NCBI GenBank assembly: GCA_017537175.1
Contig: JAFYLH010000001.1
Span: 15,387 to 79,386 of the forward strand
DNA: 64,000 nucleotides
DNA from: Clostridia bacterium
GTDB taxonomy: Bacteria > Bacillota > Clostridia > Oscillospirales > CAG-272
Direction: 5' to 3'
The notes under the pieces are model-generated. The model did no database searches. It saw only the letters and a program-made list of their open reading frames with translations, and was not told where the DNA came from. This document shows, in pieces, positions 16,960 to 57,712 of this stretch (position 1 is its first letter; each line of letters starts with the position of its first letter). Position numbers and translations under genes: made by a program.

Positions 16960-17685
16960 TTAATTGTTCGCAAACAACCATTCCGGATCAGCACCGAAAA
17001 ATTCCTTAAATCTGTCAGGCTGAACCGACTCGACAACAGCTACAAGCTTCATATTTATACCGCTGGTTGTATCACTGTCATATTTGGTCGAGGCAGATGT
17101 AACGAAAGGAACCTCTGTAGGATTTCTCTTTTTAACCGTTTTTCCGTTCTCGTCCTTTTCGTTAACCTCTGTGTATGTCACGACATTTTTGTAATAGTAA
17201 TAATCTCCAACCTTTATCCAATCATCACCCAAAGTATAGGTGACATCTGTCGCAGGATGCATAACCTCGGTATCACCGCTAAGGGTATAAAAGTTCTCAA
17301 AAAGCTGTACTCTGATGTAAGCAGAGCTGGGTCCGGTGAATTTGACCTTAAGCTGTAATTCATCCAAATCATAAATATTAAAGACAACATCATCTGTAAG
17401 ATCGGTAAAATCGGATTCAGACGAAGACAACTTATAGAGGGTCTGTGTTTCAAAATCGGTGGTTATAACCGTAAGATCCGCATCCTGCTCGGGTGCAAAC
17501 CAAGAAAATGCCATACCGATAGAAAACACAACTACCATCAGAATTACAACAATTGCTGCAATCAGTATGCTGTAACGGCGGCGAAATTCCCTGCTTGAGG
17601 AAATATCATTCCTTTGCTTAACTTCACTGCCTTTTTTTGATATAGTTTTATCAGGCAGATTAGGTAATTTTTTACTTTTACTCAT
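16960..17685 (-). CDS. Secreted TasA/camelysin-like (SipW-substrate-like) protein, minor subunit candidate
   Basis: 241 aa with a basic N-terminus and a hydrophobic helix ending in ...IGMAFSWFAPEQD. This resembles the SipW-cognate signal-peptide end (A-x-F-S/T-D). It is the last gene of the operon. Confidence 0.5.
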   Translation of the reverse strand: MSKSKKLPNLPDKTISKKGSEVKQRNDISSSREFRRRYSILIAAIVVILMVVVFSIGMAFSWFAPEQDADLTVITTDFETQTLYKLSSSESDFTDLTDDVVFNIYDLDELQLKVKFTGPSSAYIRVQLFENFYTLSGDTEVMHPATDVTYTLGDDWIKVGDYYYYKNVVTYTEVNEKDENGKTVKKRNPTEVPFVTSASTKYDSDTTSGINMKLVAVVESVQPDRFKEFFGADPEWLFANN

Positions 17686-17691
17686 ATATTA

Positions 17692-18348
17692 TCATTCACC
17701 CGTATTCAATACTATCTTAAAGCTCATCATCGCATTGAGATTGAGTGCGCCTTCCTCGTCAATTATCTGTCCATAGGTTTTACCGGTTTTTTCGTCAACA
17801 TAGTGGTAATCAGCCCAGAATATGATAGCTACCATATGCTTATACACGCTGCCTTTGAAGTCGTCAGAGGTATATATCAATACGGCATCCTTGTCATTAC
17901 CCGAGCCTGCGGTATGGTTATTGTTTATCGTCTGTGAATAAGCTAAATTTGTATCTGTTCCCGCAACATAATCGGTATCAATGTAATAATGAAGACCCTT
18001 AGGAACAGTAATAGATATGCTTACATTGTTAGGCAAGGGGGACTCTACCTCAAGAGGCATTACACGAATAGCTTTTGAAAAGTCGTTAACGGAAATCTCA
18101 TCGTCACCCAGCTTGGTGGCTGAGGGTAATATGACCGATTTATCTGTAACGATATCCTGACCCAGTTCTGTTCCGTCCTGCTCGGATTTAACAGAAATAT
18201 AGAACGGATCGACCGAAACTGCTGTGTCGTCACCAAACCAGGCAAAAACCGCTGTTATAAGCAGAACGATTGCAAGGAGAAGTATGGCACCTGATTTTAT
18301 AAACTCGTTGCGCAGGTGACGCTTTCTTTCAAGCTCAACAGGTCTCAT
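17692..18348 (-). CDS. Secreted TasA/camelysin-like (SipW-substrate-like) protein, minor subunit candidate
   Basis: 218 aa. The signal-like N-terminus ends in ...ITAVFAWFGDDTAV. An AGGAGA RBS is present. Confidence 0.5.
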   Translation of the reverse strand: MRPVELERKRHLRNEFIKSGAILLLAIVLLITAVFAWFGDDTAVSVDPFYISVKSEQDGTELGQDIVTDKSVILPSATKLGDDEISVNDFSKAIRVMPLEVESPLPNNVSISITVPKGLHYYIDTDYVAGTDTNLAYSQTINNNHTAGSGNDKDAVLIYTSDDFKGSVYKHMVAIIFWADYHYVDEKTGKTYGQIIDEEGALNLNAMMSFKIVLNTGE

Positions 18349-21443: not shown

Positions 21444-22064
21444 TTAATCTTTAGTATTTGTTTTATCATCGAAAGCATCTGCTTCCGATTTACCTGCTGT
21501 ATTATTACCAACCTTTTCGGGAGTATTGATTATAACAAACAGGTCTATCAGGTTTATAAGAACGATTATTGCAATGGGAAGAACTGTTATACAGAATGAT
21601 ATTGTTCTGTTGGAGAGTATCTCAAACACCTTACCTATGTGATAGGAGGTGAACACTACCCTTCCCATAATATCCTCTTCATAAACCTTATATTCGTCGG
21701 GCTCGGGGTTTGCCGCACCCTTGGTCGTAATTTCGGTGACACCGTCACCGTTGATATCAATTGCATATATATTGTGGGTATTGATGCTACCCTCAATATC
21801 CGGATCATGGGATACAAAGGATATTGTATCGCCCACCTCCAGCTTCTCAAAGGGAACTTCCTTTGCAATAATGAAGCTTCCTTTTCTTATGTCGGGTTCC
21901 ATGCTTCCTGTAAGAACATAATAGAACCTGCTGCCGAAAAACGACATTTCGGGATTAGCTCTGGAAAGTGTGGCAAAAACGAGAAGCGAAAACGAGAACA
22001 CAAGGAAAACTGCGGCAATCACGCTTGTGATCTTAATTGCTCGCTTGGTCTTAGGCTTGGTCAT
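21444..22064 (-). CDS. SipW-like (archaeal/ER-type, S26 family) signal peptidase I, copy 2
   Basis: 206 aa with an N-terminal TM helix, the catalytic-Ser box VLTGSMEP, a TKGAANPEPDE box and a C-terminal TM helix. Its start overlaps the stop of the upstream gene (ATGA at 22062-22066). Confidence 0.75.
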   Translation of the reverse strand: MTKPKTKRAIKITSVIAAVFLVFSFSLLVFATLSRANPEMSFFGSRFYYVLTGSMEPDIRKGSFIIAKEVPFEKLEVGDTISFVSHDPDIEGSINTHNIYAIDINGDGVTEITTKGAANPEPDEYKVYEEDIMGRVVFTSYHIGKVFEILSNRTISFCITVLPIAIIVLINLIDLFVIINTPEKVGNNTAGKSEADAFDDKTNTKD

Positions 22065-24142
22065 CAGTTTTCACCGTTGTCGTTAACAAAATTGATAGAT
22101 ACGGCATCCGCTATGCTCATAACCGACTCGTCGGATGCTTGTGTTATATCAGACTTTACCTGCTTTGGCTTTGAAACAGCCTTAGCCTTTTCCTTTGCGG
22201 CCTTTTCCTTAGCCTTAGCCTTAGCCTTTGCTGCTTTTTCCTTTTCAAGGGCTATAGCCTTTTCCTTTGCGGCTTTTTCCTTAGCCTTTGCTTTTGCTTT
22301 AGCAGCCTTTTCCTTCTCTATGGCAGCGGCTTTTTCCTTGGCTGCCCTTTCCTTTTCTTTTGCTTTTTGCTTTGCCTGTCTCTCTTTTTCGAGAGCCTCG
22401 GCCTTTTCCTTGTCTGCCTTGGCTTTAGCCTTTGCCTTTTCACGGGCTACGCGCTCTTTTTCAAGCGCATCAGCCTTTTCCTTGTCTGCCTTGGCTTTAG
22501 CCTTTGCCTTTTCACGGGCTACGCGCTCTTTTTCAAAAGCCTCGGCCTTTTCTTTATCTGCCTTGGCTTTAGCCTTAGCCTTTTCACGGGCTACGCGCTC
22601 TTTTTCAAGAGCCTCGGCCTTTTCTTTATCTGCTTTGGCTTTAGCCTTTGCCTTTTCACGGGCTACGCGCTCTTTTTCAAGAGCCTCGGCCTTTTCTTTA
22701 TCTGCCTTGGCTTTAGCCTTTGCCTTTTCACGGTCAAGGCGTTCCTTTTCAAGAGCTGCTGCCTTTTCCTTAGCAGCCTTTTCCTTTGCCTTCTGCTTAG
22801 CTATGCGCTCTTTTTCAAGGGCTTTTTCTTTTTCAAGCTTAGCCTTTTCACGGGCAATACGGTCAGCCTCGCGCTTCTTCTCTCTGGCAATACGCTCTTC
22901 CTCGCGCTTGCGAGCGGCTTCTTCTCTCGCCTTCTGACGAGCAATACGAGCCTTTTCTTCTGCCTTTTCGCGGGCAATACGCTCTTTTTCTGCCTTAATG
23001 GCATCTTGCTTAGCCTGCTTTTCGGCTTTAAGAGCATTGCTGATAGCCTCGGCAATAAGAGCATCCTGCTTTTCGCGCTTCTTTGCCGCCTTGACGATCT
23101 CATCAAGGTATACTCGCCTGATCTCGGTATTATAGATATCGTAGTCGTCTACGATCTCCTCGATCATATTCTTAACGAACTTAGGCTTGATCTGTCTGCG
23201 CTTCTTCTTGTGTTCAAGATCAACCTCATCTGAGGAATCTGCCGCCTTCTTAAGGCAGATATAGTTAAGAGCAAGAGCGTTATAAAATGCAAATACCTGC
23301 TGTTGCTCAAGCTCACGGTATTCGTTGATAACATCAATGGTATAGCCTACCTCGTGGTAGGTCTCGATAAACTGCCAGAGAACAAGAGCCTTTTTAAAGT
23401 TAGGGTCCTTAAGAATAACATTTGTTCTCATAATAGGAGGACGCACGGGAGCAGAGCCTCTCATAGAACGGGCAAATGCTGAGCCGCGGAACTCACGGAT
23501 AATATGGGAAAGACGGTCGATACGGGCAAAAATACTCATACGGCTGGTGTCCATATCGATCATAGATGTCTTATTTGTAGCAGAAATTTCGAGCTTGTAG
23601 GTAACATCCTCGGATCCATTGTTAAATGTTCCCTCCATGCCAAGCTCTGCGACCTCTTCATCGTCGGTAATACCGTAGAGCACCTTACGGCGGCTCTCAA
23701 CAAACTCCTCAACCTTGCCGAGAAGTGTATAGATAAAACGGTTTTCGTAGATGTCAAAGCTCTCTTCACGGTATACATTGAGTATCTCGTTGGGAGTTAC
23801 TCTGTCACCGTCTACTCTTGCTATGAGGTTGGTATGCTGTGCAAGATGGCGAACAGACTCATTGGTAATACGGCGTGCCTTTTCAATCGGCACTATCTCC
23901 TCCTCCTGTACGATGAAACGACGGGGGTTACGGATGATGGTATCAAGCTCAACAATGCAGTTCTCTATCTGCTCGATCCAGCGGACATCGATCTTCTTAT
24001 CCTTTTTCTTCTGATAAAAAGAGATCTTGTTACTGCCCGCACCGATATTCTCCATAACATAGCTATAGAACTCATCGCTCTCTATCATCGAGACAAAATT
24101 TTCATAGTATGAATCATATAATGAATCTATCTGTTTAGACAC
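22064..24142 (-). CDS. McrC/DUF2357-like N-terminal domain protein with a long K/E/A-rich coiled-coil repeat C-terminus
   Basis: 692 aa with a GTG start and an AAGGAG RBS 8 nt upstream. The first ~330 aa are globular and contain FDIYENRFIYTLL, which I associate with DUF2357/McrC-like partners. I saw no PD-(D/E)xK motif. Residues ~355-665 are repeats of the type (KEKAEALEKERVAREKAKAKAKAD)n. Confidence 0.55.
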   Translation of the reverse strand: MSKQIDSLYDSYYENFVSMIESDEFYSYVMENIGAGSNKISFYQKKKDKKIDVRWIEQIENCIVELDTIIRNPRRFIVQEEEIVPIEKARRITNESVRHLAQHTNLIARVDGDRVTPNEILNVYREESFDIYENRFIYTLLGKVEEFVESRRKVLYGITDDEEVAELGMEGTFNNGSEDVTYKLEISATNKTSMIDMDTSRMSIFARIDRLSHIIREFRGSAFARSMRGSAPVRPPIMRTNVILKDPNFKKALVLWQFIETYHEVGYTIDVINEYRELEQQQVFAFYNALALNYICLKKAADSSDEVDLEHKKKRRQIKPKFVKNMIEEIVDDYDIYNTEIRRVYLDEIVKAAKKREKQDALIAEAISNALKAEKQAKQDAIKAEKERIAREKAEEKARIARQKAREEAARKREEERIAREKKREADRIAREKAKLEKEKALEKERIAKQKAKEKAAKEKAAALEKERLDREKAKAKAKADKEKAEALEKERVAREKAKAKAKADKEKAEALEKERVAREKAKAKAKADKEKAEAFEKERVAREKAKAKAKADKEKADALEKERVAREKAKAKAKADKEKAEALEKERQAKQKAKEKERAAKEKAAAIEKEKAAKAKAKAKEKAAKEKAIALEKEKAAKAKAKAKEKAAKEKAKAVSKPKQVKSDITQASDESVMSIADAVSINFVNDNGEN
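22382..22741. repeat. Five tandem 72-bp (24-codon) in-frame repeats inside the 692-aa gene
   Basis: The unit CTCTTTTTC(A/G)AG... recurs at 22382, 22454, 22526, 22598 and 22670, an exact 72-bp period. More degenerate K/E/A-coding repeats flank it across about 22147-23077. Confidence 0.8.
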
Positions 24143-24186
24143 TTTCTGATCTCCTTATCTTGGGTGTGCCAATAACGGCTGATATT

Positions 24187-25731
24187 TTAGTAAAGCTTCT
24201 TGAGTCTGAGGAGGTATTCCTTGGACTCCTGCATATTCTGCTTGCCGAACATCTTATCCATATAGCTGATAAGACCGTCGATCTCATCACGGATAAAGGA
24301 AAGGTTGAGGGACTCAAACTTTCTGAATACCTTCTGCTTAAGTACATAGTCAAGACCGTCGATTTCTGTACCGCCGCAGCCTACATATGCAGGAACAAAG
24401 TCCTTAAGCTGCTTAACGATACGGTTACCGAATGCCAGTCTGAAGTGCTCGATTACATAGTCATCAAGCTCTGCAATCTTATCAAGGCTTTCCTGAGATA
24501 CCCTGTATTTATCCTTAGCCTCATCAAACATAGACTCGAGGTGAGTAAAGGAGAGGCTGAGATTCTCTGTATAGGGAGCATCGAAATACTTACCCTTGGT
24601 ATTGATATCGATAGGCATTGCACGGTCATAAACCTTGTCTGTAATAGCAAAGGTAGAGTCGTCGTTGTTTGCAGTACCGATATACCACATATTCTGAGGA
24701 AGGGTCATACGGCCTTCTACAACCATCTTGGGGTCGGTGGGCCATGCGGAGGGAACGAGGTCAACTACCCACTCGTCACGGGTAGGCATTTCAAGGATGG
24801 ACAGAAGCTCTGCAAAGTAGTACTCAACACGGGCAATGTTCATCTCGTCGAGGATGGTGAGGTATACATCGTCAGTATATTTTGCCTCGTACATCTTCTT
24901 TAATACCTCGGTCTCGTTAAAGCGCTTGGTAAATTCGTTGAAGTAGCCGAAGATCTCGGTACGGTCACGCCAGGAGGGCTGTACCGATGCTATTGTTGTA
25001 TCGTTCTGTGTAAACTTACCAAAGGCATAAGGCAAGGAGGTCTTACCTGTACCGGATATACCCTGGAGTATGAGAAGTCTGGTTGAAGCAAAGGAAGCAA
25101 GGAAAAGACGGATAGTCTTGATCTCATAGAACAGACCCATACGGGAGCATGCGAAGTTACGGAACATATCACATATCTCGGGAAGTGTGATATCCTTGTT
25201 ATATACAGGAGCTACATAGTTCTCGTACTGGCGGTCAACCATCTTGAGCTTGTAGAAACGGCCGATATCCTCGTCGGTAAGAGGCTTTTCTTCCTCGGTT
25301 GCTTCGGTATTCTCTTCCTCAGCGGGCTTAACCACGGGAAACTCGGGAGAAGGATCCAAAGGATTGACCTTCATAGCCAGGATGCGCTCCTTTTCACGGG
25401 TAAGCTTAACGATCTCACGGTTAAGGTTGCCCATCTCCTCCATCATCTCTGCACGGGAAACAAGATTTACACGGTTGTGTATGTACTTTCTGATAAGAAG
25501 GAACAGAAATACCAATATTACTATAAGAAGCGCAAATACGACAATTGCAACAAGGATAGCAAGTACCCACTCCAGTATGCCGAAATTCTCCTTATATTCT
25601 CCAAATACCTTTATGTATTTAGGTATATTGAATACATCAACAATACCAAAGAATATACCGGTAATGATCTTCCAGAGACCACCGACAAATACACCGGTAA
25701 AATCCTTAATAAATAATGCTAAGCTTTCCAT
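24187..25731 (-). CDS. Membrane-anchored McrB-like AAA+ (AAA_5) NTPase
   Basis: 514 aa with two N-terminal TM helices and a coiled-coil/acidic linker. It has Walker A (LQGISGTGKTS), Walker B (LTILDEMNIARVEYYFAELLS) and YIGTANNDDST, which resembles the McrB IGTMNtaDRS box. An AAGGAAGG RBS is present. Confidence 0.7.
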   Translation of the reverse strand: MESLALFIKDFTGVFVGGLWKIITGIFFGIVDVFNIPKYIKVFGEYKENFGILEWVLAILVAIVVFALLIVILVFLFLLIRKYIHNRVNLVSRAEMMEEMGNLNREIVKLTREKERILAMKVNPLDPSPEFPVVKPAEEENTEATEEEKPLTDEDIGRFYKLKMVDRQYENYVAPVYNKDITLPEICDMFRNFACSRMGLFYEIKTIRLFLASFASTRLLILQGISGTGKTSLPYAFGKFTQNDTTIASVQPSWRDRTEIFGYFNEFTKRFNETEVLKKMYEAKYTDDVYLTILDEMNIARVEYYFAELLSILEMPTRDEWVVDLVPSAWPTDPKMVVEGRMTLPQNMWYIGTANNDDSTFAITDKVYDRAMPIDINTKGKYFDAPYTENLSLSFTHLESMFDEAKDKYRVSQESLDKIAELDDYVIEHFRLAFGNRIVKQLKDFVPAYVGCGGTEIDGLDYVLKQKVFRKFESLNLSFIRDEIDGLISYMDKMFGKQNMQESKEYLLRLKKLY

Positions 25732-25804
25732 ATGCTGTACCTTCCTTTGATGAAGTAATTTTTAGCTTGGGAGAGATAGTGCCGTAAGGCTTATTCTAAG
25801 CTCT

Positions 25805-25956
25805 CAACTCTGAACTCATAGCATAGTTATGAGTTTACAGTTTAGAGTTCAGAACAATTACCGCCCTCCCCAATCAACTCTAAACTCATAGTTCTAAACT
25901 CTAAACTTGTAGCAAAAGAGTTTATAGTTTAGAGTGAAGAGCTTTAAAGGGGAGGC
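25805..25956. repeat. Two tandem hairpin-forming modules in the sipW-1/AAA+ intergenic spacer
   Basis: A 17-nt direct repeat, CAACTCTGAACTCATAG (25805) and CAACTCTAAACTCATAG (25875). Stems seen: TCTGAACTC/GAGTTCAGA (25809/25845), CTAAACTCTAAACT/AGTTTATAGTTTAG (25894/25919), and an outer GCCCTCCCC/GGGGAGGC (25863/25949). Confidence 0.5.
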
Positions 25957-25969
25957 AGTTAATATTCTA

Positions 25970-26728
25970 TCATTCGGACTTACTGTCCGTATTGTTTTCG
26001 TCTTTATTTGCTTCTGCTTCGTTAGCCTGCTTTGCGAGATATTCGGCAATAGCAGCCTGCTTCTGCTCATCAGAGAGTTCTGTACCCAAGCTGGGATCCT
26101 TTGACATTTTATACTCAATCATTGCTTTAACAAACTTATAAAGAGCATAAATGAAGAACGCAGCCATAGGCAGAACCATACAAATCATAATACCTGTAGG
26201 AGATTTAACAAAATCAAACACAAATCCTACGTAAGGTACACGTGTACCGGTATATACACCTACAATTCGGTAAGGGTTAACGGATACAGGGTCAACCTCG
26301 AGACCGTCCTTATCACCCTTTGTCATATAGAGGTCGCCGTCATATCCTACGATTCTATGGAGCTTAACAACTTCAAAAGGCTCGCCGATAGGCTCTTTAG
26401 TAATAGGGTCCTGCTTCTGCTGCATTTCGCGATAAGCAATGACCTCACCTATCTCAAGATCCTTAAAATCATTTTTGTCCTGCTTACAAATTACAAAATC
26501 ACCTACGTTGATAGAATCAGGTTTGTCTGTCTGCATTGAGTCAGTTTCTACATAAAGGAAGGTATATCCCAAAACGGCAGCCTGACCTGTACCTGTCAGT
26601 CTGGATGAAAATACAGATACAGCTACAAATAAAACGATAATAGTATACAGTATTACAAGGATAGTTGAAATAACATCCCAAACTTTTTTTGCAGTTGACT
26701 TATTCTTCTTTACTTTGTTATTATCCAT
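25970..26728 (-). CDS. SipW-like (archaeal/ER-type, S26 family) signal peptidase I, copy 1, with a C-terminal extension
   Basis: 252 aa with an N-terminal TM helix, the Ser box VETDSMQ, the His box KLHRIVG, a TKGDKDGLEVD box and a C-terminal TM helix. A ~50-aa acidic tail follows. Confidence 0.7.
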   Translation of the reverse strand: MDNNKVKKNKSTAKKVWDVISTILVILYTIIVLFVAVSVFSSRLTGTGQAAVLGYTFLYVETDSMQTDKPDSINVGDFVICKQDKNDFKDLEIGEVIAYREMQQKQDPITKEPIGEPFEVVKLHRIVGYDGDLYMTKGDKDGLEVDPVSVNPYRIVGVYTGTRVPYVGFVFDFVKSPTGIMICMVLPMAAFFIYALYKFVKAMIEYKMSKDPSLGTELSDEQKQAAIAEYLAKQANEAEANKDENNTDSKSE

Positions 26729-26831: not shown

Positions 26832-27632
26832 TTATGCCCAAGCGATGGAAAGAGCGAATTGCTGATCCTGCATAGACCAAGAACCGGAACAATCCTTATC
26901 CATACCCTCAAGCCAGATAGCAACAGTTACGAGCTTGTCGCCTGCCTCGTCAAACTTGATTGAGTAGCCGTCGTTACCGAGAGCAGCCTGAGTTCTTGCT
27001 GCTGCAAAGCCGGTAGCTGCGTCATCAGCGGGAACGAAAAGCTGAGTACCGTCATCCTTAACGCTTACAGCACCTGCTGCGTTGCAAGGTCTGTAGGAGT
27101 CAGCGGAATCAACATCGATATCATAGATGGTCATTTCGCCCTGCTCTGCAGTATCACTTACGCCGAGAGCGTACTTGATGCCAGCCTGGAAGGTAGCGTT
27201 AGCAGATGTGTTAACATTGATAGTAGCTGTACCAGCCTTAGGAGCTCTTACCCAGAAGCTGAAGAGCATGTAGCCTGCAGCGTCAGCATCAGCGGTTGTC
27301 CAGTTGTTAGCTGTATCGCTGTATGTAGCAGGATAGAAGCTCTTTGCATCAGCTGTAGAGTGAGCAACGAATGCCTCGTCAATGATAGCCCAATCAGCTG
27401 CGGTATCCCAGTCTACAACATTAAGTGTAGGCTTGAATGCACCTGCGGAGTAGTTGCTGGATGCGTCAGCAGCAGCAAGAAGAAGAGCTCCGTCGGATGC
27501 GGTTACATCGATCTTGAAAGCCTCAATAGAGTTGGTGTTAGCGGATGTGAACCATGCATAAGATGCTGTTGCTAAGCACATAAGAGCTACGAGCAGAACA
27601 GCTGTAGAAGTAATTAAAGCTTTTCTTTTCAT
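26832..27632 (-). CDS. Secreted TasA/camelysin-like protein, candidate major fibre subunit
   Basis: 266 aa. The N-terminus MKRKALITSTAVLLVALMCLATASYAWFTSAN fits the SipW-cognate signal class. The body is Ala/Asp/Thr-rich, the C-terminus carries IWLEGMDKDC, and the AGGAGG RBS is strong. Confidence 0.6.
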   Translation of the reverse strand: MKRKALITSTAVLLVALMCLATASYAWFTSANTNSIEAFKIDVTASDGALLLAAADASSNYSAGAFKPTLNVVDWDTAADWAIIDEAFVAHSTADAKSFYPATYSDTANNWTTADADAAGYMLFSFWVRAPKAGTATINVNTSANATFQAGIKYALGVSDTAEQGEMTIYDIDVDSADSYRPCNAAGAVSVKDDGTQLFVPADDAATGFAAARTQAALGNDGYSIKFDEAGDKLVTVAIWLEGMDKDCSGSWSMQDQQFALSIAWA

Positions 27633-27789: not shown

Positions 27790-28620
27790 TCATTCGGATG
27801 TTTCTTTTGCTGATTCCTTATATTTGTTTTGAACATTGAAGTTCATTTCAAATTTAAGTGAGTTGCCGAATATGTCATTGTTACATTCCGGATCTTCGCC
27901 CTCGAGCCACATTACTACTGTGTATCTGTCTGTTACACCGGGATCGATCTCGTTATTAGCAACCTCTAATAGATCAGGTTCTCCTAAAAACTCAACGGTG
28001 TCGGCTTCAAGTGGAGTTCCTTCGATAGGTGCTTTTGCCCATACAACACTTTCACCGTTTCGTATGATCATAATTCTTATGGCATCAAGTGCATCAACCT
28101 GTTTGTTGATAAGCTTATCAACAAGAATCATATCATAAGTATAACGGATAGGCTCATCTGTAACATTCTTTAAATGGAATGTATAAGCAAGATAACTGGG
28201 ATCCTTTTCGGTAGGCGTGGGCTTATTAAGCGAAGTTTTGCTATGAGCACCTCCGTCAACCTCAGTATGTATATTTTCAGGAATCCAGGATCGCCCATTG
28301 TGCCAAAGATCATGAACACTTGTACCCTTGAGCAGAATCGTAGGATCATCGAAATTACTTGTTTCACAAAGTGATATAAGATTTCGCTGACCTTTGTCGA
28401 TCTTTACGGTGAAATCGCCAAATTCATCACCTGATCCGGCACCACCCTGCCAGAAGAACAAGAATAACAGGTATAAAATTATTACTAACAACAACAGCGA
28501 TACTACAATCCATTTTGTTACCTTTATGCGTTGCTGCAGCTTTGCCGTCCTTTGACCGGATCGCTTGACTGCTATCGCGTTAGCAACAGGATCATTACTG
28601 TTGAAATTTTTTCCAGCCAA
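27790..28620 (-). CDS. Membrane-anchored paralogue of the fibre subunits (TapA-like anchor candidate)
   Basis: 276 aa with a TTG start. A ~35-aa cytoplasmic basic tail precedes one TM helix (WIVVSLLLLVIILYLLFLFFW). The extracellular domain ends in MWLEGEDPEC, the same motif as the 266-aa protein. Confidence 0.5.
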   Translation of the reverse strand: MAGKNFNSNDPVANAIAVKRSGQRTAKLQQRIKVTKWIVVSLLLLVIILYLLFLFFWQGGAGSGDEFGDFTVKIDKGQRNLISLCETSNFDDPTILLKGTSVHDLWHNGRSWIPENIHTEVDGGAHSKTSLNKPTPTEKDPSYLAYTFHLKNVTDEPIRYTYDMILVDKLINKQVDALDAIRIMIIRNGESVVWAKAPIEGTPLEADTVEFLGEPDLLEVANNEIDPGVTDRYTVVMWLEGEDPECNNDIFGNSLKFEMNFNVQNKYKESAKETSE

Positions 28621-28695: not shown

Positions 28696-29493
28696 TCAAA
28701 ATGCAGAGATTTCCCTTTCGGGAGTCGAGAAATAGTTGCCCTCTATAAGGAAGCAACGCATTCTCTTCATTTCGTTAAGCTGTTCCTTGGTGTCAATACC
28801 GTCGGCAATTACAAGGACATTAAGCTTTTCGCATAGCTCTACTATACCCTCGGTAATACCGGCTGCTCGCTCACTTACCGCAACATCACGGGTGAAGTCA
28901 CGGTTGAGCTTGACATAATCGACCTCGAAGGTCGCCAGCTTACGAAGCGAGGTGGACTCAGAGCCAAAGTCTGTGATGCACACCTTGGCACCGCCCTCAC
29001 GGAGCAATCTGATATTTTCAAAAAGCTGATCTGTTCCTGCCATAAGCTCGGCTTCGTTTATCTGAATACCAAAGCGCTTATGGGGTATCTCGTATTTAGC
29101 CAGTATCTTGGTAAATTCGGTATAGAAATCAGCTCTGGTAAGATATCTTGCCGTAAGTGTTATAAAGATACGGTGGATATGCTTACCGTAGGAGTTCTGA
29201 CGCTTAATAAGCTCACAGACCTCCTCAATCTGCCACTTGCCTACACGGGATGCAAGCTGATTTCTGCCCGCAACCGCGGCAACGCGGTCATATGTAAGTG
29301 TGCCGAGTTTCTTGTCATTGATTACAAGTGCGGCATCGTAACCTAAGATGATATTGGAGTTGGTATCGTATATCTGCATAAACAGATATTCCATAGGACG
29401 AAGCTCTGTTGCGCGCTTGCGTCTGGGACGCTTTGCCGCAGGCTTCTTTCCCTTCTCCTTTATCTCGGTTTTTACTTTTGTTTCTTCTGCCAT
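28696..29493 (-). CDS. Degenerate EAL-domain protein with a Lys/Arg-rich N-terminal tail
   Basis: 265 aa. The layout is EAL-like, but the signature positions are substituted: EAL becomes DAA (GYDAALV), EITE becomes QINEAE, DDFGTGYSS becomes TDFGSESTS, KID becomes KLN, and the AEGVE...QG positions read ADGID...EGNYF. Confidence 0.65.
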   Translation of the reverse strand: MAEETKVKTEIKEKGKKPAAKRPRRKRATELRPMEYLFMQIYDTNSNIILGYDAALVINDKKLGTLTYDRVAAVAGRNQLASRVGKWQIEEVCELIKRQNSYGKHIHRIFITLTARYLTRADFYTEFTKILAKYEIPHKRFGIQINEAELMAGTDQLFENIRLLREGGAKVCITDFGSESTSLRKLATFEVDYVKLNRDFTRDVAVSERAAGITEGIVELCEKLNVLVIADGIDTKEQLNEMKRMRCFLIEGNYFSTPEREISAF

Positions 29494-29518: not shown

Positions 29519-32500
29519 TTAGATTGTCAGCCAATCGGTGGTTGCAGTTACAAGATTGCCGCTTGCATCCTTGTAAATTGCATAACCGTAGCCGTAGTAT
29601 GCACCTGCCTTAAGTCGGAGCTTAAAGGTGCCGTTGATGCTAAAGTCTGTGGTCGTCAGTCTGTAAGTAGCTGAAGTATCACACAGCTGATCAAATGTAA
29701 CCTGTGTGCTTGCGGTAGTCAAAAGGAAACCGCTTTCCACCAAGGTGTATCCGTCAGGCGCATTTCGCTGAATAATAACCGTGTCATTACTGTTACTTAA
29801 CAAAACCACACCTGCTGCAGCTGTGCCCGAGTATACTGCCGTAATGTTTGCATCACAGGATACCCTGTGCTTGTATACAGGCTCGTAGCTTACAAATCTA
29901 CCACCTATCTGCCATCCTACAAAGTTTTTGGCATCGGTCATAAGAGTCAACACTTCGTCATAAAGCGCACTGTGTGTCTTGTTCATTGCTGTGTAGGTTG
30001 AACCGGATACAGTTATACTGTATGAGGTGTCACTCTTATATTCATAGTACAATGCACTGTCTATAACAGTATCACCGGCTACACCTGTCTTTGTACGGGA
30101 GGATGAAGCAGGATATAGCTGCCACGGATCATCCGAGCTTCTAAGCAGCTTATTATTGCGATCAATATAGAAGCCGTTCTTACTGCCCTCACTTACAAAC
30201 TGCGCCGTCATAGCACAATGTGACACGATGGTAAAGGTATATGTTGACCTGTTGGTCAATATACGGTCGGATTTTAACCTGAGATTAACATCACTCGTAC
30301 CACTCTTATGGTTATTATTCCAGGTGAAATATGCGAACTCATAGCCCGATGCTGCAGCTACATTGGATATCGAAACCTGTGTACCGTAGATACATTTGAA
30401 GGTTTTGGTTTCGGTAATATTGCTGTCGGTAACCGGCTCGCTCACACCCGGCGCGGTATAGGTTACGGTTGCAAAGGAGCTTGCGCCCTTACCGCCCTCA
30501 ACCAAGGTAAAGTTAACTACCTTTGTCCACTGAGCATAAAGGGTAATGCCGGGCTCCATAAACAGACATGCCGCGGTTGTGGGCGACATTGTAAAGTTTA
30601 CGGAATAGGAGGTACCCGTACCGTCAGCCTTGGTGTTCCAGGATGTGATAACATAGTTATCGGTTGTAAACAGATTACTGTTGTAGGTAACATATTCCCC
30701 ATAGGGAGAAACAAGACTGTAAACAGTATCTCCTCCGGTATAGCCCTCATTATCGGGGGTCTGGCCTACAGGATAATTAGCCTTGTATGCAACGGTATAA
30801 TCCCATTGCTGATAGTATGCATACTGCTCGGTAAATGCGGGATTAAGTGTTCCGAATCCATTAGGATATGTCAGCTTTAATCCCGAGCCGTATACCTGAT
30901 AACCCGTGGTATAGGAATTACTGTTATAGTCGGTATAAGCCTTGTATCTTTGCTGACCTACCTCGGAATACGGAGCATGAAAGTATACACCCTTACCGCC
31001 GTACGGAAGAATATCATGATAGTTATGCAGCGTTGCTGCAGTTCCTCCGTCATACTGGTAGGGGATCAAACCCATCTTGAATGCTTCCCAAGAGGGATAA
31101 TGAACAGAATCCAAAAGATTATAAGAGCCGAGGGTAGTTATCTCGGTATATATGAACATAATCGGATATACTACTTCCTTAAACTCGGTTTTGGTGCTTA
31201 CAAACCGTTTATCACCTGCAGAGGTATAAAAGGTATTGCCGTTAACCGTCTGCTTATTCGCGGTTATAAGCTCATCAGAGCTTGTGTTACCCTCGGGGTC
31301 ACATACCACCGTGGGGAATGTGAAGTGTGCGCCTTCGCCGATATATATGGTATATCGCTTTGGTTCCTTGGCGATAACCACACCTTTTTCAACAAACTCT
31401 TCCTTATATACATTGATATTAAAATCACATATATACTGCTCATGAGAAGAGGGTGTGAATTTATACGCGTCGATATAATCCTCATCGGGATCATATGCAA
31501 ACAGAGGTTCGCATACAACAGGATATTTGGTACCGTTATATTCTACATAATCCATACCCGCGCTGTACGGTTTATATACACCGTTTTCGGTAGGCCTGTA
31601 ATAGATATAGTACATTGTACCGCCGGACTTTTCATTCGGATCAAAGTAGGCGTTGTTATAAGCACCGCCGTTCATATGTGCGTACTTATTGTTGGCATAA
31701 TAGGTACTGAGATAACCTACCGAATACTCGTATCTATCGTTATCTTCATCATAATACTCATAGTGTGCATAAATGATACTGTCGGATGCATGCTGGTAAA
31801 GCTGACCTTCGTTCCAGGTTGCGCAATCGATAAGATGATCATTATTTTCTATATGAGCCTTACCGCTGTGCTTCCATCCTACACTTACATGCAGCACACC
31901 GTTTACAGTATGCTTTGCCGTAGGAATGTAGTAGAGACAGTCCTTGTAGGTCTGCCCTGCCATGATAGCCATTACACCGTATCTGCGGTTAGAGTCAACT
32001 ATGACACCGTCACCGTGAGGTGCTTCGCCATTGTTGTCTCTGTTAACACCGCCGTCAAATACTACTTCGTAGTATCCTTCGGTGTAAATAGCATACAGTT
32101 CCAGATGGGTATTTCTTAAGGGACCTGAACCCTCAACACCCTCACCGGGGTCTTCGTAATCGTCATCAAAAATATACTGCCAACCGTATTTATTATCATG
32201 AGTTACATACTGTTGTTTACCGCGGGAATCATAGTATGTCCAACCTACCCAGGCAGCTTCGGTATTCTTGGCTGCAACAAGACAAGGATTGAAATCGATA
32301 CAGATCCTGGGATCGTTGTCATCGTCGATATAGTCGATCACTCGACTTGTAGCCTTATCGAATATAAGGTTATCAGAGGTTTCGCTAAGCTTGAACAGAT
32401 CCTCCATAGGAAGATTTTCAGAAAGACAGATGTCTCCGCTCTTGTTCCAAAGCTTAACTCTATATCCGTATGCACCTATCCTGTTACACTCGGGACAGGT

Positions 32501-34564
32501 TCCGTAATCACGCTGTTCACCGTCTTCCCAGGATAAGGTGTGATAATTGCCGTTATCGTCCTTGTGGTCACACCACCAGCGCCACATAGCAACTATCTGT
32601 ACGTCACCTTCATACTCGTGTACAGCATCGCCCCAGCCTTCTTCGGGAGTAAAGAGCTTGTTGACAAAATTGCCGCTTTCATCCTTGACCATCATGCCCC
32701 AACCCTTAAAGGTATAGTTGGTTCTGGTGGGCTCGGGAAAACCGCCGACTATAGTAGCAATAGAATTGTTTAATGCTATGCCGTATTCCAAGGAATATCC
32801 GCTCTCCATAGTTGCGGGATTCACAGCGTCATCGTTAAGATTGAAGATGATCTTATATGGAGTATCGATCCATACAGCATCCAATGTTATATTCTGCCCG
32901 AAATAATAGGTCTGGTTCTCACCCCAGCCCTCGGTCCAGTGATGGTCGGTACGGTTATTCCACTGCCATCCGCCAAAGGCATAGCCCTCACGGGTGGGTG
33001 CCGGGAATCCGCCGATAACATCGTTGAAGTACTGTCCGTCAAGGAAGGTATAGGTCGTATTGTATCCGGACGGCATTGTACCGCCTTTCAAATTAAATGT
33101 TAAAGTACGCTGTGTTTTCGGTGTATATTCTGCCTTGAACACAGTACTGCCTACAGGATCGGGTCTGTATCTGCTGGATGCCCAGGTAGAGGAGGTATAT
33201 ATGCCTCCCTTGACACCGTTATTGTAAACCCTCCATCCTGTGAAGGTATAACCCGGTAATGTAGGCACGGGAATGGTAGGACTGACCGCATCTGAAAGAA
33301 GATCGTCATAGTGAATCTCTACCACGGTATCAACACCCTCAGGCATTGTAGCTGCCCTCGGAGGATCAACAGTATCATCCTGTCCGGGCTCAAATGTAAT
33401 TGTGTATGTCTCCTTACCGTATATGGCATGGAGTGTATAGTTAACTGCTGACGAAAATGTTGTGTCAGCCTCTTCTGCGTAAGGGTCAATCGACCAGCCG
33501 AGGAATTTAGCTCCCGGCTTAGTCGCACTGAAGTTCGGTTCAACGGGAACCGAGGCGTTTTCATTTGTGGTCTTCAGCTCGTAGGTGTCGACTTTTGTAG
33601 GCTGATCTATTGCTGTACCGTTAACAACAAGCTTACCGCCGTTTGCGTTAAATGTAACGTTTATACGCTTTTTATTAAAGCTGCGGCAGACAGTACATCT
33701 GTACAGATCATATCTGTTCTCACCATCAGAAGTAACCCACTGTCTGGTGTGGTCGATCTTGGGTATAGCGGTCGTGAATGTTTCGCCGCAATTATTACAC
33801 TTTTGGGTCTTGGAGCCTTCCTGTGTACAGGTAGCGGCAACCGTGCTTGTTACAGTTGTGGAAGTGTGCAGACACTTCCAAACAGCTGTCATTGTAGCAT
33901 CGCCGGTTAATGTATAATAATTGTTTTCCCAGCTGCCTGTGTGAAGACCGAAAATTTTGTTGTAATCATAATACTGAAATTCGTATCCGTCTCTCACAGG
34001 AGTGGGAAATGAGTTGTTAAATGCTTCCTTGTAAGACTGATTATACTTGATAGAATATGCTTTGGTGTTAGAACCATTTATCTTGCCGCCATTGGCATCA
34101 AGGGTTAGTGTATAGGTTTTTGGGATCCAGCAAGGATTGAGATACCAAACTCGGTTTGCGGTAGTTTCTATTGCAACCTCTGATCCAAACGGTCCTATCC
34201 AACCGTCAACTCCGTTGTTGGAGTAGTAGTACGAACCGGAAAAATCATATCCGGTACGGCTAAAGGCGGGATTTGAAAACAGATTACTATATGCGGTGGG
34301 AGCAAAAAGATTTCCCGGGGTCGTCGGATTAGTGCTTGTTCCGCATACGATACCGTACCAGTTAGGAAGACCGTTTCCTGTCTGCTCGGAAAAATAAACT
34401 GTATTAAGATTAACCGTAGTAGCGTCACCCATGTATATATACATAAAAACATTATGAGCCGCATTACCGGATAAATCGAAATATACGAATGAGCTTAAAA
34501 TCGTAAGAAGAGCCATAATAAATGTTATAACACGCTTGACGGAATGAAGCTGTGTATTTGTCAT
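29519..34564 (-). CDS. Giant (about 1681 aa) secreted/anchored protein with Listeria-Bacteroides (Flg_new) repeats
   Basis: I trimmed the start to MTNTQLHS, which has a GGAG RBS 9 nt upstream. The N-terminal signal-anchor is followed by at least 5 modules of the type YT(L/I)TF.ANGG ... GY.F.GW ... AVW. There are two Cys4 zinc-ribbon-like inserts (CNNCG...CTVC and CDH...CPEC) and a long Tyr/Asn-rich C-terminal region. Confidence 0.8.
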   Translation of the reverse strand: MTNTQLHSVKRVITFIMALLTILSSFVYFDLSGNAAHNVFMYIYMGDATTVNLNTVYFSEQTGNGLPNWYGIVCGTSTNPTTPGNLFAPTAYSNLFSNPAFSRTGYDFSGSYYYSNNGVDGWIGPFGSEVAIETTANRVWYLNPCWIPKTYTLTLDANGGKINGSNTKAYSIKYNQSYKEAFNNSFPTPVRDGYEFQYYDYNKIFGLHTGSWENNYYTLTGDATMTAVWKCLHTSTTVTSTVAATCTQEGSKTQKCNNCGETFTTAIPKIDHTRQWVTSDGENRYDLYRCTVCRSFNKKRINVTFNANGGKLVVNGTAIDQPTKVDTYELKTTNENASVPVEPNFSATKPGAKFLGWSIDPYAEEADTTFSSAVNYTLHAIYGKETYTITFEPGQDDTVDPPRAATMPEGVDTVVEIHYDDLLSDAVSPTIPVPTLPGYTFTGWRVYNNGVKGGIYTSSTWASSRYRPDPVGSTVFKAEYTPKTQRTLTFNLKGGTMPSGYNTTYTFLDGQYFNDVIGGFPAPTREGYAFGGWQWNNRTDHHWTEGWGENQTYYFGQNITLDAVWIDTPYKIIFNLNDDAVNPATMESGYSLEYGIALNNSIATIVGGFPEPTRTNYTFKGWGMMVKDESGNFVNKLFTPEEGWGDAVHEYEGDVQIVAMWRWWCDHKDDNGNYHTLSWEDGEQRDYGTCPECNRIGAYGYRVKLWNKSGDICLSENLPMEDLFKLSETSDNLIFDKATSRVIDYIDDDNDPRICIDFNPCLVAAKNTEAAWVGWTYYDSRGKQQYVTHDNKYGWQYIFDDDYEDPGEGVEGSGPLRNTHLELYAIYTEGYYEVVFDGGVNRDNNGEAPHGDGVIVDSNRRYGVMAIMAGQTYKDCLYYIPTAKHTVNGVLHVSVGWKHSGKAHIENNDHLIDCATWNEGQLYQHASDSIIYAHYEYYDEDNDRYEYSVGYLSTYYANNKYAHMNGGAYNNAYFDPNEKSGGTMYYIYYRPTENGVYKPYSAGMDYVEYNGTKYPVVCEPLFAYDPDEDYIDAYKFTPSSHEQYICDFNINVYKEEFVEKGVVIAKEPKRYTIYIGEGAHFTFPTVVCDPEGNTSSDELITANKQTVNGNTFYTSAGDKRFVSTKTEFKEVVYPIMFIYTEITTLGSYNLLDSVHYPSWEAFKMGLIPYQYDGGTAATLHNYHDILPYGGKGVYFHAPYSEVGQQRYKAYTDYNSNSYTTGYQVYGSGLKLTYPNGFGTLNPAFTEQYAYYQQWDYTVAYKANYPVGQTPDNEGYTGGDTVYSLVSPYGEYVTYNSNLFTTDNYVITSWNTKADGTGTSYSVNFTMSPTTAACLFMEPGITLYAQWTKVVNFTLVEGGKGASSFATVTYTAPGVSEPVTDSNITETKTFKCIYGTQVSISNVAAASGYEFAYFTWNNNHKSGTSDVNLRLKSDRILTNRSTYTFTIVSHCAMTAQFVSEGSKNGFYIDRNNKLLRSSDDPWQLYPASSSRTKTGVAGDTVIDSALYYEYKSDTSYSITVSGSTYTAMNKTHSALYDEVLTLMTDAKNFVGWQIGGRFVSYEPVYKHRVSCDANITAVYSGTAAAGVVLLSNSNDTVIIQRNAPDGYTLVESGFLLTTASTQVTFDQLCDTSATYRLTTTDFSINGTFKLRLKAGAYYGYGYAIYKDASGNLVTATTDWLTI

Positions 34565-34662
34565 TATTATCAACTCCTCTCTCAAAAATTGTATGCCTGA
34601 ACTATAAATTTTATGTTCACAGACAAATGGGCATAACTATACCTATAGTTACTCGTTATTAT

Positions 34663-34691
34663 ATAATAGCACTTTTTCCTTTAGTTGTCAA
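34663..34691 (-). promoter_or_regulatory. Putative promoter of the fibre operon
   Basis: In minus-sense: TTGACA (34691-34686), a 17-nt spacer, then TATTAT (34668-34663). This implies a ~90-nt 5' UTR. Confidence 0.4.
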
Positions 34692-57637: not shown

Positions 57638-57712
57638 TGGTGACCCGTGGGGGAATCGAACCCCCGATTCAGCCGTGAGAGGGCTGCGTCTTAGCCGCTT
57701 GACCAACAGGCC
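57638..57712 (-). tRNA. tRNA-Glu: tRNA-Glu (anticodon CUC)
   Basis: The 75-nt hand fold is GGCCTGT/TG/GTC-AAGCGGCTAA-GAC/G/CAGCC-CTCTCAC-GGCTG/AATC/GGGGG-TTCGATT-CCCCC/ACGGGTC/A/CCA. It closely resembles Bacillus tRNA-Glu. An upstream promoter TTGACA-17-TGTTATACT is at 57732-57760. Confidence 0.9.

Follow-up and report, generated by a model that had tools for sequence, protein, structure and literature searches.

We analyzed a 64,000-nucleotide stretch from a Clostridia bacterium (GTDB lineage Bacteria; Bacillota; Clostridia; Oscillospirales; CAG-272; assembly GCA_017537175.1, contig JAFYLH010000001.1, positions 15,387 to 79,386 of the forward strand), here called the window, in which two adjacent open reading frames (ORFs) for relatives of the McrBC restriction system lie among genes for signal peptidases and secreted proteins. 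The first of the pair (24187 to 25731, minus strand, ATG start) encodes a 514-amino-acid McrB-like AAA+ GTPase with an N-terminal membrane anchor. The second (22064 to 24142, minus strand, GTG start) encodes a 692-amino-acid McrC-like partner, in which a DUF2357 core without a nuclease is joined to a charged helical repeat. A preliminary description of the locus had placed both ORFs correctly, and the 44-nucleotide gap that it reported between the GTPase stop codon and the partner GTG is present, as is the AAGGAG ribosome-binding site, located 8 nucleotides before the GTG. The overlap that it noted between the partner gene and the next gene, which encodes the SipW-type signal peptidase SipW-B (206 amino acids; 21444 to 22064, minus strand), is also real, but its rendering as ATGA was imprecise, since the partner TGA and the SipW-B ATG have a single base in common within TGATG at 22062 to 22066. 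A second SipW-type peptidase, SipW-A (252 amino acids; 25970 to 26728, minus strand), is encoded upstream of the GTPase gene. In the list of open reading frames of the window, all of these genes belong to a minus-strand block of 11 co-directional genes that runs from 34585 down to 16960.

The three motifs singled out in the preliminary description, GISGTGKTS, LTILDEMNIARVEYYFAELLS, and IGTANNDDST, were all found in the 514-amino-acid protein and are invariant or nearly so in its homologues. They contribute Walker A (GISGTGKT), Walker B (LDEMN), and the signature (NNDD) to an AAA+ core at residues 197 to 400 (24532 to 25143, minus strand), and residue R370 was aligned by hhalign with an Arg of the McrB ALRRRF motif. 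The proposed kinship with McrB was borne out by matches to the NCBIfam McrB model (E value of 1.2e-6, far below the equivalog cutoff of that model), to three McrB sequences in the PDB at 3-7e-6 (including 6hz4/6ut6 at 3e-6), and to E. coli McrB in the hhalign comparison (probability, 96.7%; E value, 4.7e-10). Pfam AAA_5 remained below threshold (16.9 bits versus 22), and the best match in any of the libraries was to the PADLOC candidate model PDC-M26A (6.7e-34). An unrelated AAA+ clade had been named beforehand as the outcome that would speak against this kinship; no MoxR or secretion ATPase profile matched, and the named matches were to McrB only for the GTPase and to DUF2357 for the partner.

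The same motifs were followed in 80 loci from other genomes (GTDB contigs, one genome per species), in which homologues of the window genes were located by BLASTP. Walker A (GISGTGKT) and NNDD were identical in 80/80 loci, and Walker B took the form [LIVM]DE[MIVL]N in every one of them. Among the 150 best-scoring representatives of 50% clusters, the signature, where found, nearly always read N-x-D-[D/E]-S-T-[F/Y], in which the Asp at +2 is fixed and position +3 is usually D or E. The NNDD of the window protein can also be read as NxxD, and a gapless alignment to the E. coli NTAD is possible, so that the NxD feature holds at the level of the clade and is not decisive for this single sequence. 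The family is large: more than 8000 homologues were present in a 90%-clustered database, the best 120 of them with identities of at least 57% (at least 65% in every case except one), and a 50%-clustered library held 8885 representatives at an E value of ≤1e-3 and 920 at ≤1e-30. Relatives occur in at least 591 GTDB species, and sequence comparison places the GTPase under strong purifying selection. In one homologue (P0014, 646 amino acids), a stretch of about 130 residues that covers the C-terminal portion of the AAA+ core and the beginning of the C-terminal domain is duplicated internally, probably as an assembly artifact.

Two transmembrane helices had been proposed for the N terminus of the GTPase (residues 1 to 81; 25489 to 25731, minus strand). 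The one at residues ~53 to 81 is unambiguous (Kyte-Doolittle 19-residue mean of 3.7), whereas the other, a conserved but weaker Gly-rich hydrophobic helix at residues ~13 to 34 (19-residue mean of 1.86), is plausible and not certain. The N terminus thus reads as a hydrophobic helix, a transmembrane helix, a basic cluster, a conserved helix of about 40 residues, and an acidic linker. W20, G25, G29, F34, Y39, and W55 are invariant in the anchor of GTPase homologues, and E99, L103, N104, E113, K114, I117, L118, M120, and K121 are conserved in the helical stalk that follows the transmembrane helix (residues 82 to 123; 25363 to 25488, minus strand), the counterpart of the coiled coil that Bell et al. 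(PMC11090510) call FtsB-like. Residues 63 to 115 gave a weak, subthreshold match to Pfam FtsL (E value of 0.16), and no DNA-binding family was matched in the N terminus in Pfam scans. Because the basic cluster RKYIHNR comes after the transmembrane helix, the AAA+ domain and the C-terminal part are predicted, from the distribution of charge, to lie in the cytoplasm.

Residues 12 to 164 of the partner (23651 to 24109, minus strand) matched Pfam DUF2357 (E value of 1.3e-13; 51 bits against a cutoff of 23), which was equated with the McrC N-terminal domain by Bell et al. (PMC11090510). The motif DIYENRF, rightly taken in the preliminary description as a sign of a DUF2357/McrC-like protein, occupies residues 130 to 136, and the invariant columns of the family include Y132-E-N-R-F136, R151, R207, R210, P236, T240, N241, K245, and W256. 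Precomputed annotations assign this domain to most of the 1951 partner homologues, several of which are named "DUF2357 domain-containing protein" by NCBI. The partner has no nuclease, as had been claimed. No Pfam, NCBIfam, or PADLOC nuclease family was matched by it, no acidic-acidic-Lys catalytic set occurs among the invariant columns, and the AlphaFold2 model of residues 1 to 359 (predicted local distance difference test [pLDDT] score of 76) consists of long beta-hairpins and helices, with one strand and helices beyond residue 247 rather than the alpha-beta-beta-beta-alpha-beta core of a PD-(D/E)xK nuclease. One insignificant alignment of the partner fell on the catalytic strand of McrC, without the catalytic residues, and a profile search of the PDB returned only coiled-coil noise.

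The remainder of the partner is dominated by a K/E/A-rich helical region of about 305 amino acids (residues 351 to 655; 22178 to 23092, minus strand) that is 50 to 66% K/R/E/D, 20 to 40% Ala, and 6 to 14% large hydrophobic residues and contains no Pro or Gly. This repeat region had been described as a coiled coil. The region is real, but its composition fits better with a charged single helix of the ER/K or TolA-like type, and with large hydrophobic residues at only 6 to 14%, a canonical heptad coiled coil was rejected as a reading for the window protein. Within the region, a 24-amino-acid (72-nucleotide) tandem repeat is present in 5.5 copies at 92% identity (22382 to 22780, minus strand), which points to a recent expansion of the tail, and tail length probably varies between strains. 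K/E/A repeats are found in Oscillospiraceae and Acutalibacteraceae loci, and tail-less partners of 362 to 376 amino acids are found in metagenome-assembled genomes (MAGs) labeled "Bacilli," Erysipelotrichaceae, and Mycoplasmatota. Ruminococcus-type partners have more conventional coiled coils, sometimes with a small globular C-terminal domain. In six loci (L028, L036, L053, L061, L064, and L074), the partner ends in a small conserved domain (…SGKSxIGIYFYRG) and not in a K/E/A helix, and neither of the two such termini that were scanned (L028 and L036) matched a Pfam family.

Both flanking peptidases exceeded the cutoff (51.85 bits) of NCBIfam TIGR02228, the archaeal/endoplasmic reticulum-type signal peptidase I model, with SipW-B at 73.4 bits and SipW-A at 56.2 bits; SipW-A also matched the SipW model at 1.8e-20, and neither protein reached the B. 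subtilis SipW equivalog cutoff of 190 bits. In an alignment of all copies, the upstream peptidase retained Ser, His, and Asp in 57/60 orthologues. The downstream copy retained Ser and His in 26/26 loci, and its Asp was replaced in 10 of these; in the window, SipW-B has the Ser and the His, but the position of the conserved Asp is occupied by Ala (TKGAAN). Since the Asp has been lost from some downstream copies, the two paralogues may differ in role or activity.

Four small secreted proteins with N-terminal signal anchors are encoded in the same block. T276 (27790 to 28620) and T266 (26832 to 27632), which resemble each other as paralogues would, are encoded upstream of SipW-A, and T218 (17692 to 18348) and T241 (16960 to 17685) are encoded by the last two genes of the block, all four on the minus strand. 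T266 (…SYAWFT…), T218 (…AVFAWFG…), and T241 (…MAFSWFA…) have in common a signal anchor that ends in [AS]-W-F, and the N terminus of T218 is similar to that of T266 (E value of 1.6e-6). T266 and T276 have in common a C-terminal motif, W-L-E-G-x-D-x-[DE]-C. Across T266 homologues, W240, G243, and D245 of this motif do not vary at all and C248 hardly does; a metal or disulfide site is one possibility for the motif. AlphaFold2 models T266 (pLDDT of 86) as a beta-sandwich preceded by a signal helix and, at residues 25 to 39, a disordered segment, and we consider it the putative major fiber subunit. Its best fold match in the PDB was 7pnb_A, the donor-strand-complemented thread subunit of S. acidocaldarius (E value of 3e-3 and probability of 0.95, with TM-scores of only 0.26 to 0.36). 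A phmmer search of T266 against the PDB gave no match, Pfam scans of 37 T266 homologues gave only subthreshold noise, and the NCBIfam SipW-cognate signal model matched none of the four signal-peptide regions when these were scanned alone. "TasA-like" is therefore used here for a functional analogy, backed by context and weakly by fold, and does not assign these proteins to a family. T266 is 37% identical to its counterpart in a related genome in which the GTPase is 84% identical, a rate of divergence that is expected of an exposed subunit.

The gene neighborhood was compared across the 80 loci, of which 72 had at least 1.5 kb downstream of the GTPase gene and were informative for the partner and 47 had enough flanking sequence to be informative for SipW at -3 to +5 kb. 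In 71/72 loci, the partner gene lay downstream of the GTPase gene, separated from it by a median of 39 nucleotides, and a SipW homologue was found within -3 to +5 kb in 47/47; the pair thus travels with SipW wherever this could be judged, which answers the concern raised in the preliminary description that it might normally occur elsewhere. At least 41 of the 47 loci also contained a gene for a relative of T266, T276, T218, or T241, and this count is a minimum, given how fast such genes diverge. In the full sample, T266 was syntenic in at least 44 loci and T276 in 55, and a gene equivalent to the one at 28696 to 29493 (minus strand), which encodes a stand-alone EAL-domain protein and candidate cyclic di-GMP (c-di-GMP) phosphodiesterase (Pfam EAL, 8.6e-47), held the same position in 33. 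The order EAL - T276 - T266 - SipW - GTPase - partner - (SipW) is found again in several taxonomic orders, in loci labeled Oscillospiraceae, Acutalibacteraceae, Christensenellales, and "Bacilli" MAGs, with GTPase identities (best segment) as low as 52%, and where the GTPase is 65 to 68% identical the partner core is 40 to 50% identical. Carriers are mostly Clostridia-class MAGs, many of them from animal guts or rumen, and number at least several hundred species. These data strongly support the linkage of the GTPase and its partner to a SipW-dependent fiber locus. They also bear on the idea that the adjacency is an accident, in which a degenerate McrBC cassette was inserted into a fiber operon. 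Beyond the general mobility of McrBC systems, nothing speaks for such an event. Both genes are intact and strongly constrained, and the recurrence of the gene order in loci from 80 species removes a chance-inserted defense cassette as a reading, so that we give an accidental arrangement practically no credence.

The preliminary description was right about the architecture of the locus, but it regarded a membrane-tethered McrB-like protein with a nuclease-less partner as undescribed, and in this respect it was mistaken. In a survey of McrBC systems, Bell, Makarova, Wolf, and Koonin (eLife 2024, PMC11090510) defined a large clade of McrB GTPases with an NxD motif, in which the Asp is at +2 of the signature and is usually followed by D or E, and within it named CoCoPALM systems, in which the GTPase is fused to an FtsB-like transmembrane/coiled-coil domain, a McrC homologue (DUF2357), usually with a coiled coil of its own, is encoded next to it, and genes of the signal-peptidase family are associated; their analysis was deferred to a future paper. 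The window locus has the corresponding parts, namely, an NxD-type McrB-like GTPase with an N-terminal transmembrane and helical domain, a DUF2357/McrC-like partner that is encoded next to it and extends into a long helical region, nearby genes of the signal-peptidase family, and a Bacillota host. No feature here contradicts membership, and the locus has every published CoCoPALM feature that could be tested, with the FtsB/FtsL likeness of the anchor only hinted at. Several features go beyond the published text: two SipW paralogues bracket the pair, the cluster includes thread/TasA-like subunit genes, an EAL gene, and genes for giant surface proteins, and the partner tail is variable or absent and ER/K-like in composition. 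The text supplements of PMC11090510 make no mention of CoCoPALM, signal peptidase, FtsB, TasA, or camelysin. Searches of the accessible literature found no follow-up paper on CoCoPALM and nothing relevant that joined McrB, signal peptidase, and pili, and the top-ranked papers included nothing relevant on SipW/TasA-like genes in gut Clostridia.

Comparison with canonical McrBC (E. coli; 6hz4, 6ut6, and 7vsr) shows what has been kept and what has been replaced. The AAA+ GTPase core with its Walker A and B motifs, Asn/Asp loop, and Arg motif is common to both, as is a two-gene operon whose second gene encodes a domain of the McrC N-terminal type (DUF2357). In the window, however, a membrane anchor takes the place of the N-terminal DNA-binding domain, the partner has no PD-(D/E)xK nuclease and does not match E. 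coli McrC significantly in either sequence or fold, and the surrounding genes are for secretion and fibers rather than restriction-modification. CoCoNuT systems belong to the same NxD McrB branch, have helical or coiled-coil extensions, and often have McrC homologues without an active nuclease. They are always accompanied by HEPN or other nucleases and often by a UPF1-like helicase (PMC11090510), whereas the window cluster has neither nuclease nor helicase, and CoCoNuT GTPases, unlike this one, have no transmembrane helices. One CoCoNuT-like locus (L083, 474 to 12301) encodes a 756-amino-acid relative of the GTPase without transmembrane helices together with VWA, Ser/Thr kinase, PP2C, and UPF1-like helicase proteins and a 676-amino-acid partner. 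Another locus (L082, 540 to 3941) encodes a relative (P0175) with about six N-terminal transmembrane helices (four to six for this variant) and a 478-amino-acid partner. It lies on a contig of 6.7 kb that carries a Rep (REP_ORF2-G2P) gene but lacks SipW, and this membrane-embedded McrBC variant is of a different kind and may be mobile.

On the fiber side, the locus resembles the TasA/TapA/SipW system of B. subtilis and the archaeal threads (Saci_0406) in that a dedicated peptidase of the endoplasmic reticulum/archaeal type is encoded beside secreted, putative beta-sandwich subunits whose signal anchor is followed by an extended N-terminal segment. Unlike in the TasA operon, the subunits lie outside the TasA/camelysin Pfam family. 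We know of no NTPase in the tapA-sipW-tasA operon, and none was reported for the thread locus of S. acidocaldarius (PMC9715654). The type IV pilus ATPases (PilB/PilT, with the platform protein PilC) offer an analogy in function only, that of a hexameric cytoplasmic NTPase that would work at the membrane on anchored, peptidase-processed pilin precursors. Their ATPase family is unrelated, their peptidase is a prepilin peptidase and not of the SipW type, their subunits are alpha-helical and not beta-sandwiches, and no counterpart of the platform protein was identified in the window cluster.

Together, these results make it likely that the pair is a CoCoPALM module, derived from McrBC with loss of the McrB DNA-binding domain and the McrC nuclease, that forms a fixed part of a cluster for SipW-dependent surface fibers (pili). 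Our best reading is that the McrBC chassis has been exapted as a cytoplasmic-membrane component of the fiber biogenesis locus, by a mechanism that we infer as follows. The GTPase would form a McrB-type ring beneath the membrane, tethered through its N-terminal hydrophobic and transmembrane helices and the short helical stalk. The DUF2357 partner would dock into the ring as McrC does and stimulate GTP hydrolysis, and its variable C-terminal helix might act as a spacer, dimerizer, or scaffold. The complex could then organize or energize the handling of signal-anchored fiber subunits at the membrane, with candidate steps in which the subunits are presented to both SipW peptidases, freed from the membrane, and polymerized in order through donor strands, by analogy with the cytoplasmic ATPases that drive extraction of type IV pilins. 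Energy-dependent fiber assembly of this kind, which the preliminary description had also suggested, would agree with what Bell et al. imply (PMC11090510). A stronger proposal, which we put forward only tentatively and consider somewhat less likely than not, is that the pair acts as a machine that uses GTP to drive or time the assembly of donor-strand-type surface fibers in monoderm bacteria. If it is true, the pair would be the first NTP-dependent apparatus for fibers of the TasA/thread class and the first McrBC derivative to act on proteins at the membrane rather than on nucleic acids.

A number of observations weigh against this reading as a whole. TasA, archaeal bundling-pilus, and thread fibers are thought to polymerize extracellularly without NTP, so that a cytoplasmic motor is not obviously required. 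The name TasA had been attached to the operon in the preliminary description along with SipW; the SipW-type peptidases are confirmed, but the TasA label is unconfirmed at the sequence level. T266, T276, T218, and T241 had zero matches to the TasA/camelysin Pfam family (Peptidase_M73) or to NCBIfam, and TasA was absent from the 50 best fold matches of T266. For the partner core, Foldseek against the PDB gave nothing at an E value of ≤0.001 and no McrC, and the hhalign comparison of the partner profile with E. coli McrC was not significant, so that its link to McrC comes from Pfam DUF2357 alone. The description of CoCoPALM itself amounts to two sentences without data (PMC11090510), and we found no experiments on any CoCoPALM member in the literature. 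Finally, the GTPase matches a PADLOC defense-candidate model, and its nearest relatives without transmembrane helices sit in defense-type CoCoNuT loci.

The last two observations speak for an alternative also raised in the preliminary description, in which the pair would be an envelope-linked anti-phage system that uses the McrBC chassis to sense phage attack at the fiber or membrane and trigger a response: the AAA+ core gives the PDC-M26A match, the CoCoNuT-type contexts include helicase, PP2C, kinase, and VWA genes, and McrBC is ancestrally a restriction system. Against this, Pfam and NCBIfam scans of the 11 genes of the block, the pair included, revealed no nuclease or other effector, and the partner had no PADLOC match. 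The constant company of SipW and the subunit genes, the very high conservation, and the housekeeping context are unlike mobile, patchy defense islands. The block is flanked by a purF-like gene and a UvrD-type helicase gene and by a SAICAR-synthase-like ORF (the latter by translation alone), which are purine-biosynthesis and UvrD genes and not defense genes. With no effector present and a locus that behaves like a housekeeping one, a role in defense is very improbable.

The main rival to the fiber biogenesis reading retains the link to fibers and dispenses with mechanical work. According to this rival, the membrane-tethered GTPase and its partner would be a switch for regulation or scaffolding and not a motor, either positioning the fiber machinery, for example, at poles or septa, or gating SipW activity or fiber anchoring in response to a cytoplasmic signal. 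Such a switch would suit the transmembrane-plus-helix anchor, which is weakly FtsL/FtsB-like (the Pfam FtsL match above; PMC11090510), and the EAL gene that heads many clusters, which suggests control by c-di-GMP. The partner tail varies greatly and some lineages do without it, as would be expected of a scaffold or spacer, and donor-strand fibers need no known NTP input (PMC9715654). On the other hand, Walker A and B, the signature Asn and Asp, and the Arg are invariant across the 80 loci, which speaks for strong selection on hydrolysis itself, and an enzyme under mechanical constraint is suggested by how extremely conserved the whole AAA+ and C-terminal domains are. We regard a purely regulatory or positioning role as unlikely, while ranking it first among the alternatives.

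To our knowledge, no dedicated machinery is known for the assembly, anchoring, or passage through the thick wall of TasA-, bundling-pilus-, or thread-type fibers. A strongly conserved GTPase that is fixed beside dedicated signal peptidases is an obvious candidate for such machinery, and a restriction-enzyme motor exapted for a function at the cell surface would be a clear evolutionary case. The existence of the system is already known to specialists, and its biology is testable. The present locus is not a discovery; its value is that it resolves one example of an already flagged class well and lists all of its genes.

The other genes of the block, all on the minus strand, include its first, which encodes a 1688-amino-acid surface protein with a Listeria-Bacteroides repeat (29519 to 34585; Pfam Flg_new, 2.8e-14); the best promoter-like sequence in the region immediately precedes this gene, at 34663 to 34691 on the same strand. 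Between SipW-B and T218, a gene at 18377 to ~21424 encodes a large secreted protein of ~1015 amino acids with a classical signal peptide and no Pfam family, homologues of which occupied the same position in 10 loci. It was listed as a 1044-amino-acid ORF from a TTG at 21511, and its probable start is the ATG at ~21424.

The spacer between SipW-A and the GTPase gene is structured. At 25790 to 25965 (minus strand), nine motifs of the AGTTTAG/CTAAACT type alternate in orientation and form two long imperfect hairpins, and elsewhere in the window such motifs are nearly absent. RNA of the spacer (25732 to 25972; 241 nucleotides) folds with a minimum free energy of -77 kcal/mol (z of -5.85), and 0 of 200 shuffled sequences were as stable. 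No Rfam family matched the spacer, and a related genome (L001, 2440 to 2640) has other hairpins at the equivalent position. The hairpins may serve as an attenuator or processing site between the subunit and machinery genes. The sole Rfam match in the window was a tRNA at 57641 to 57712 on the minus strand.

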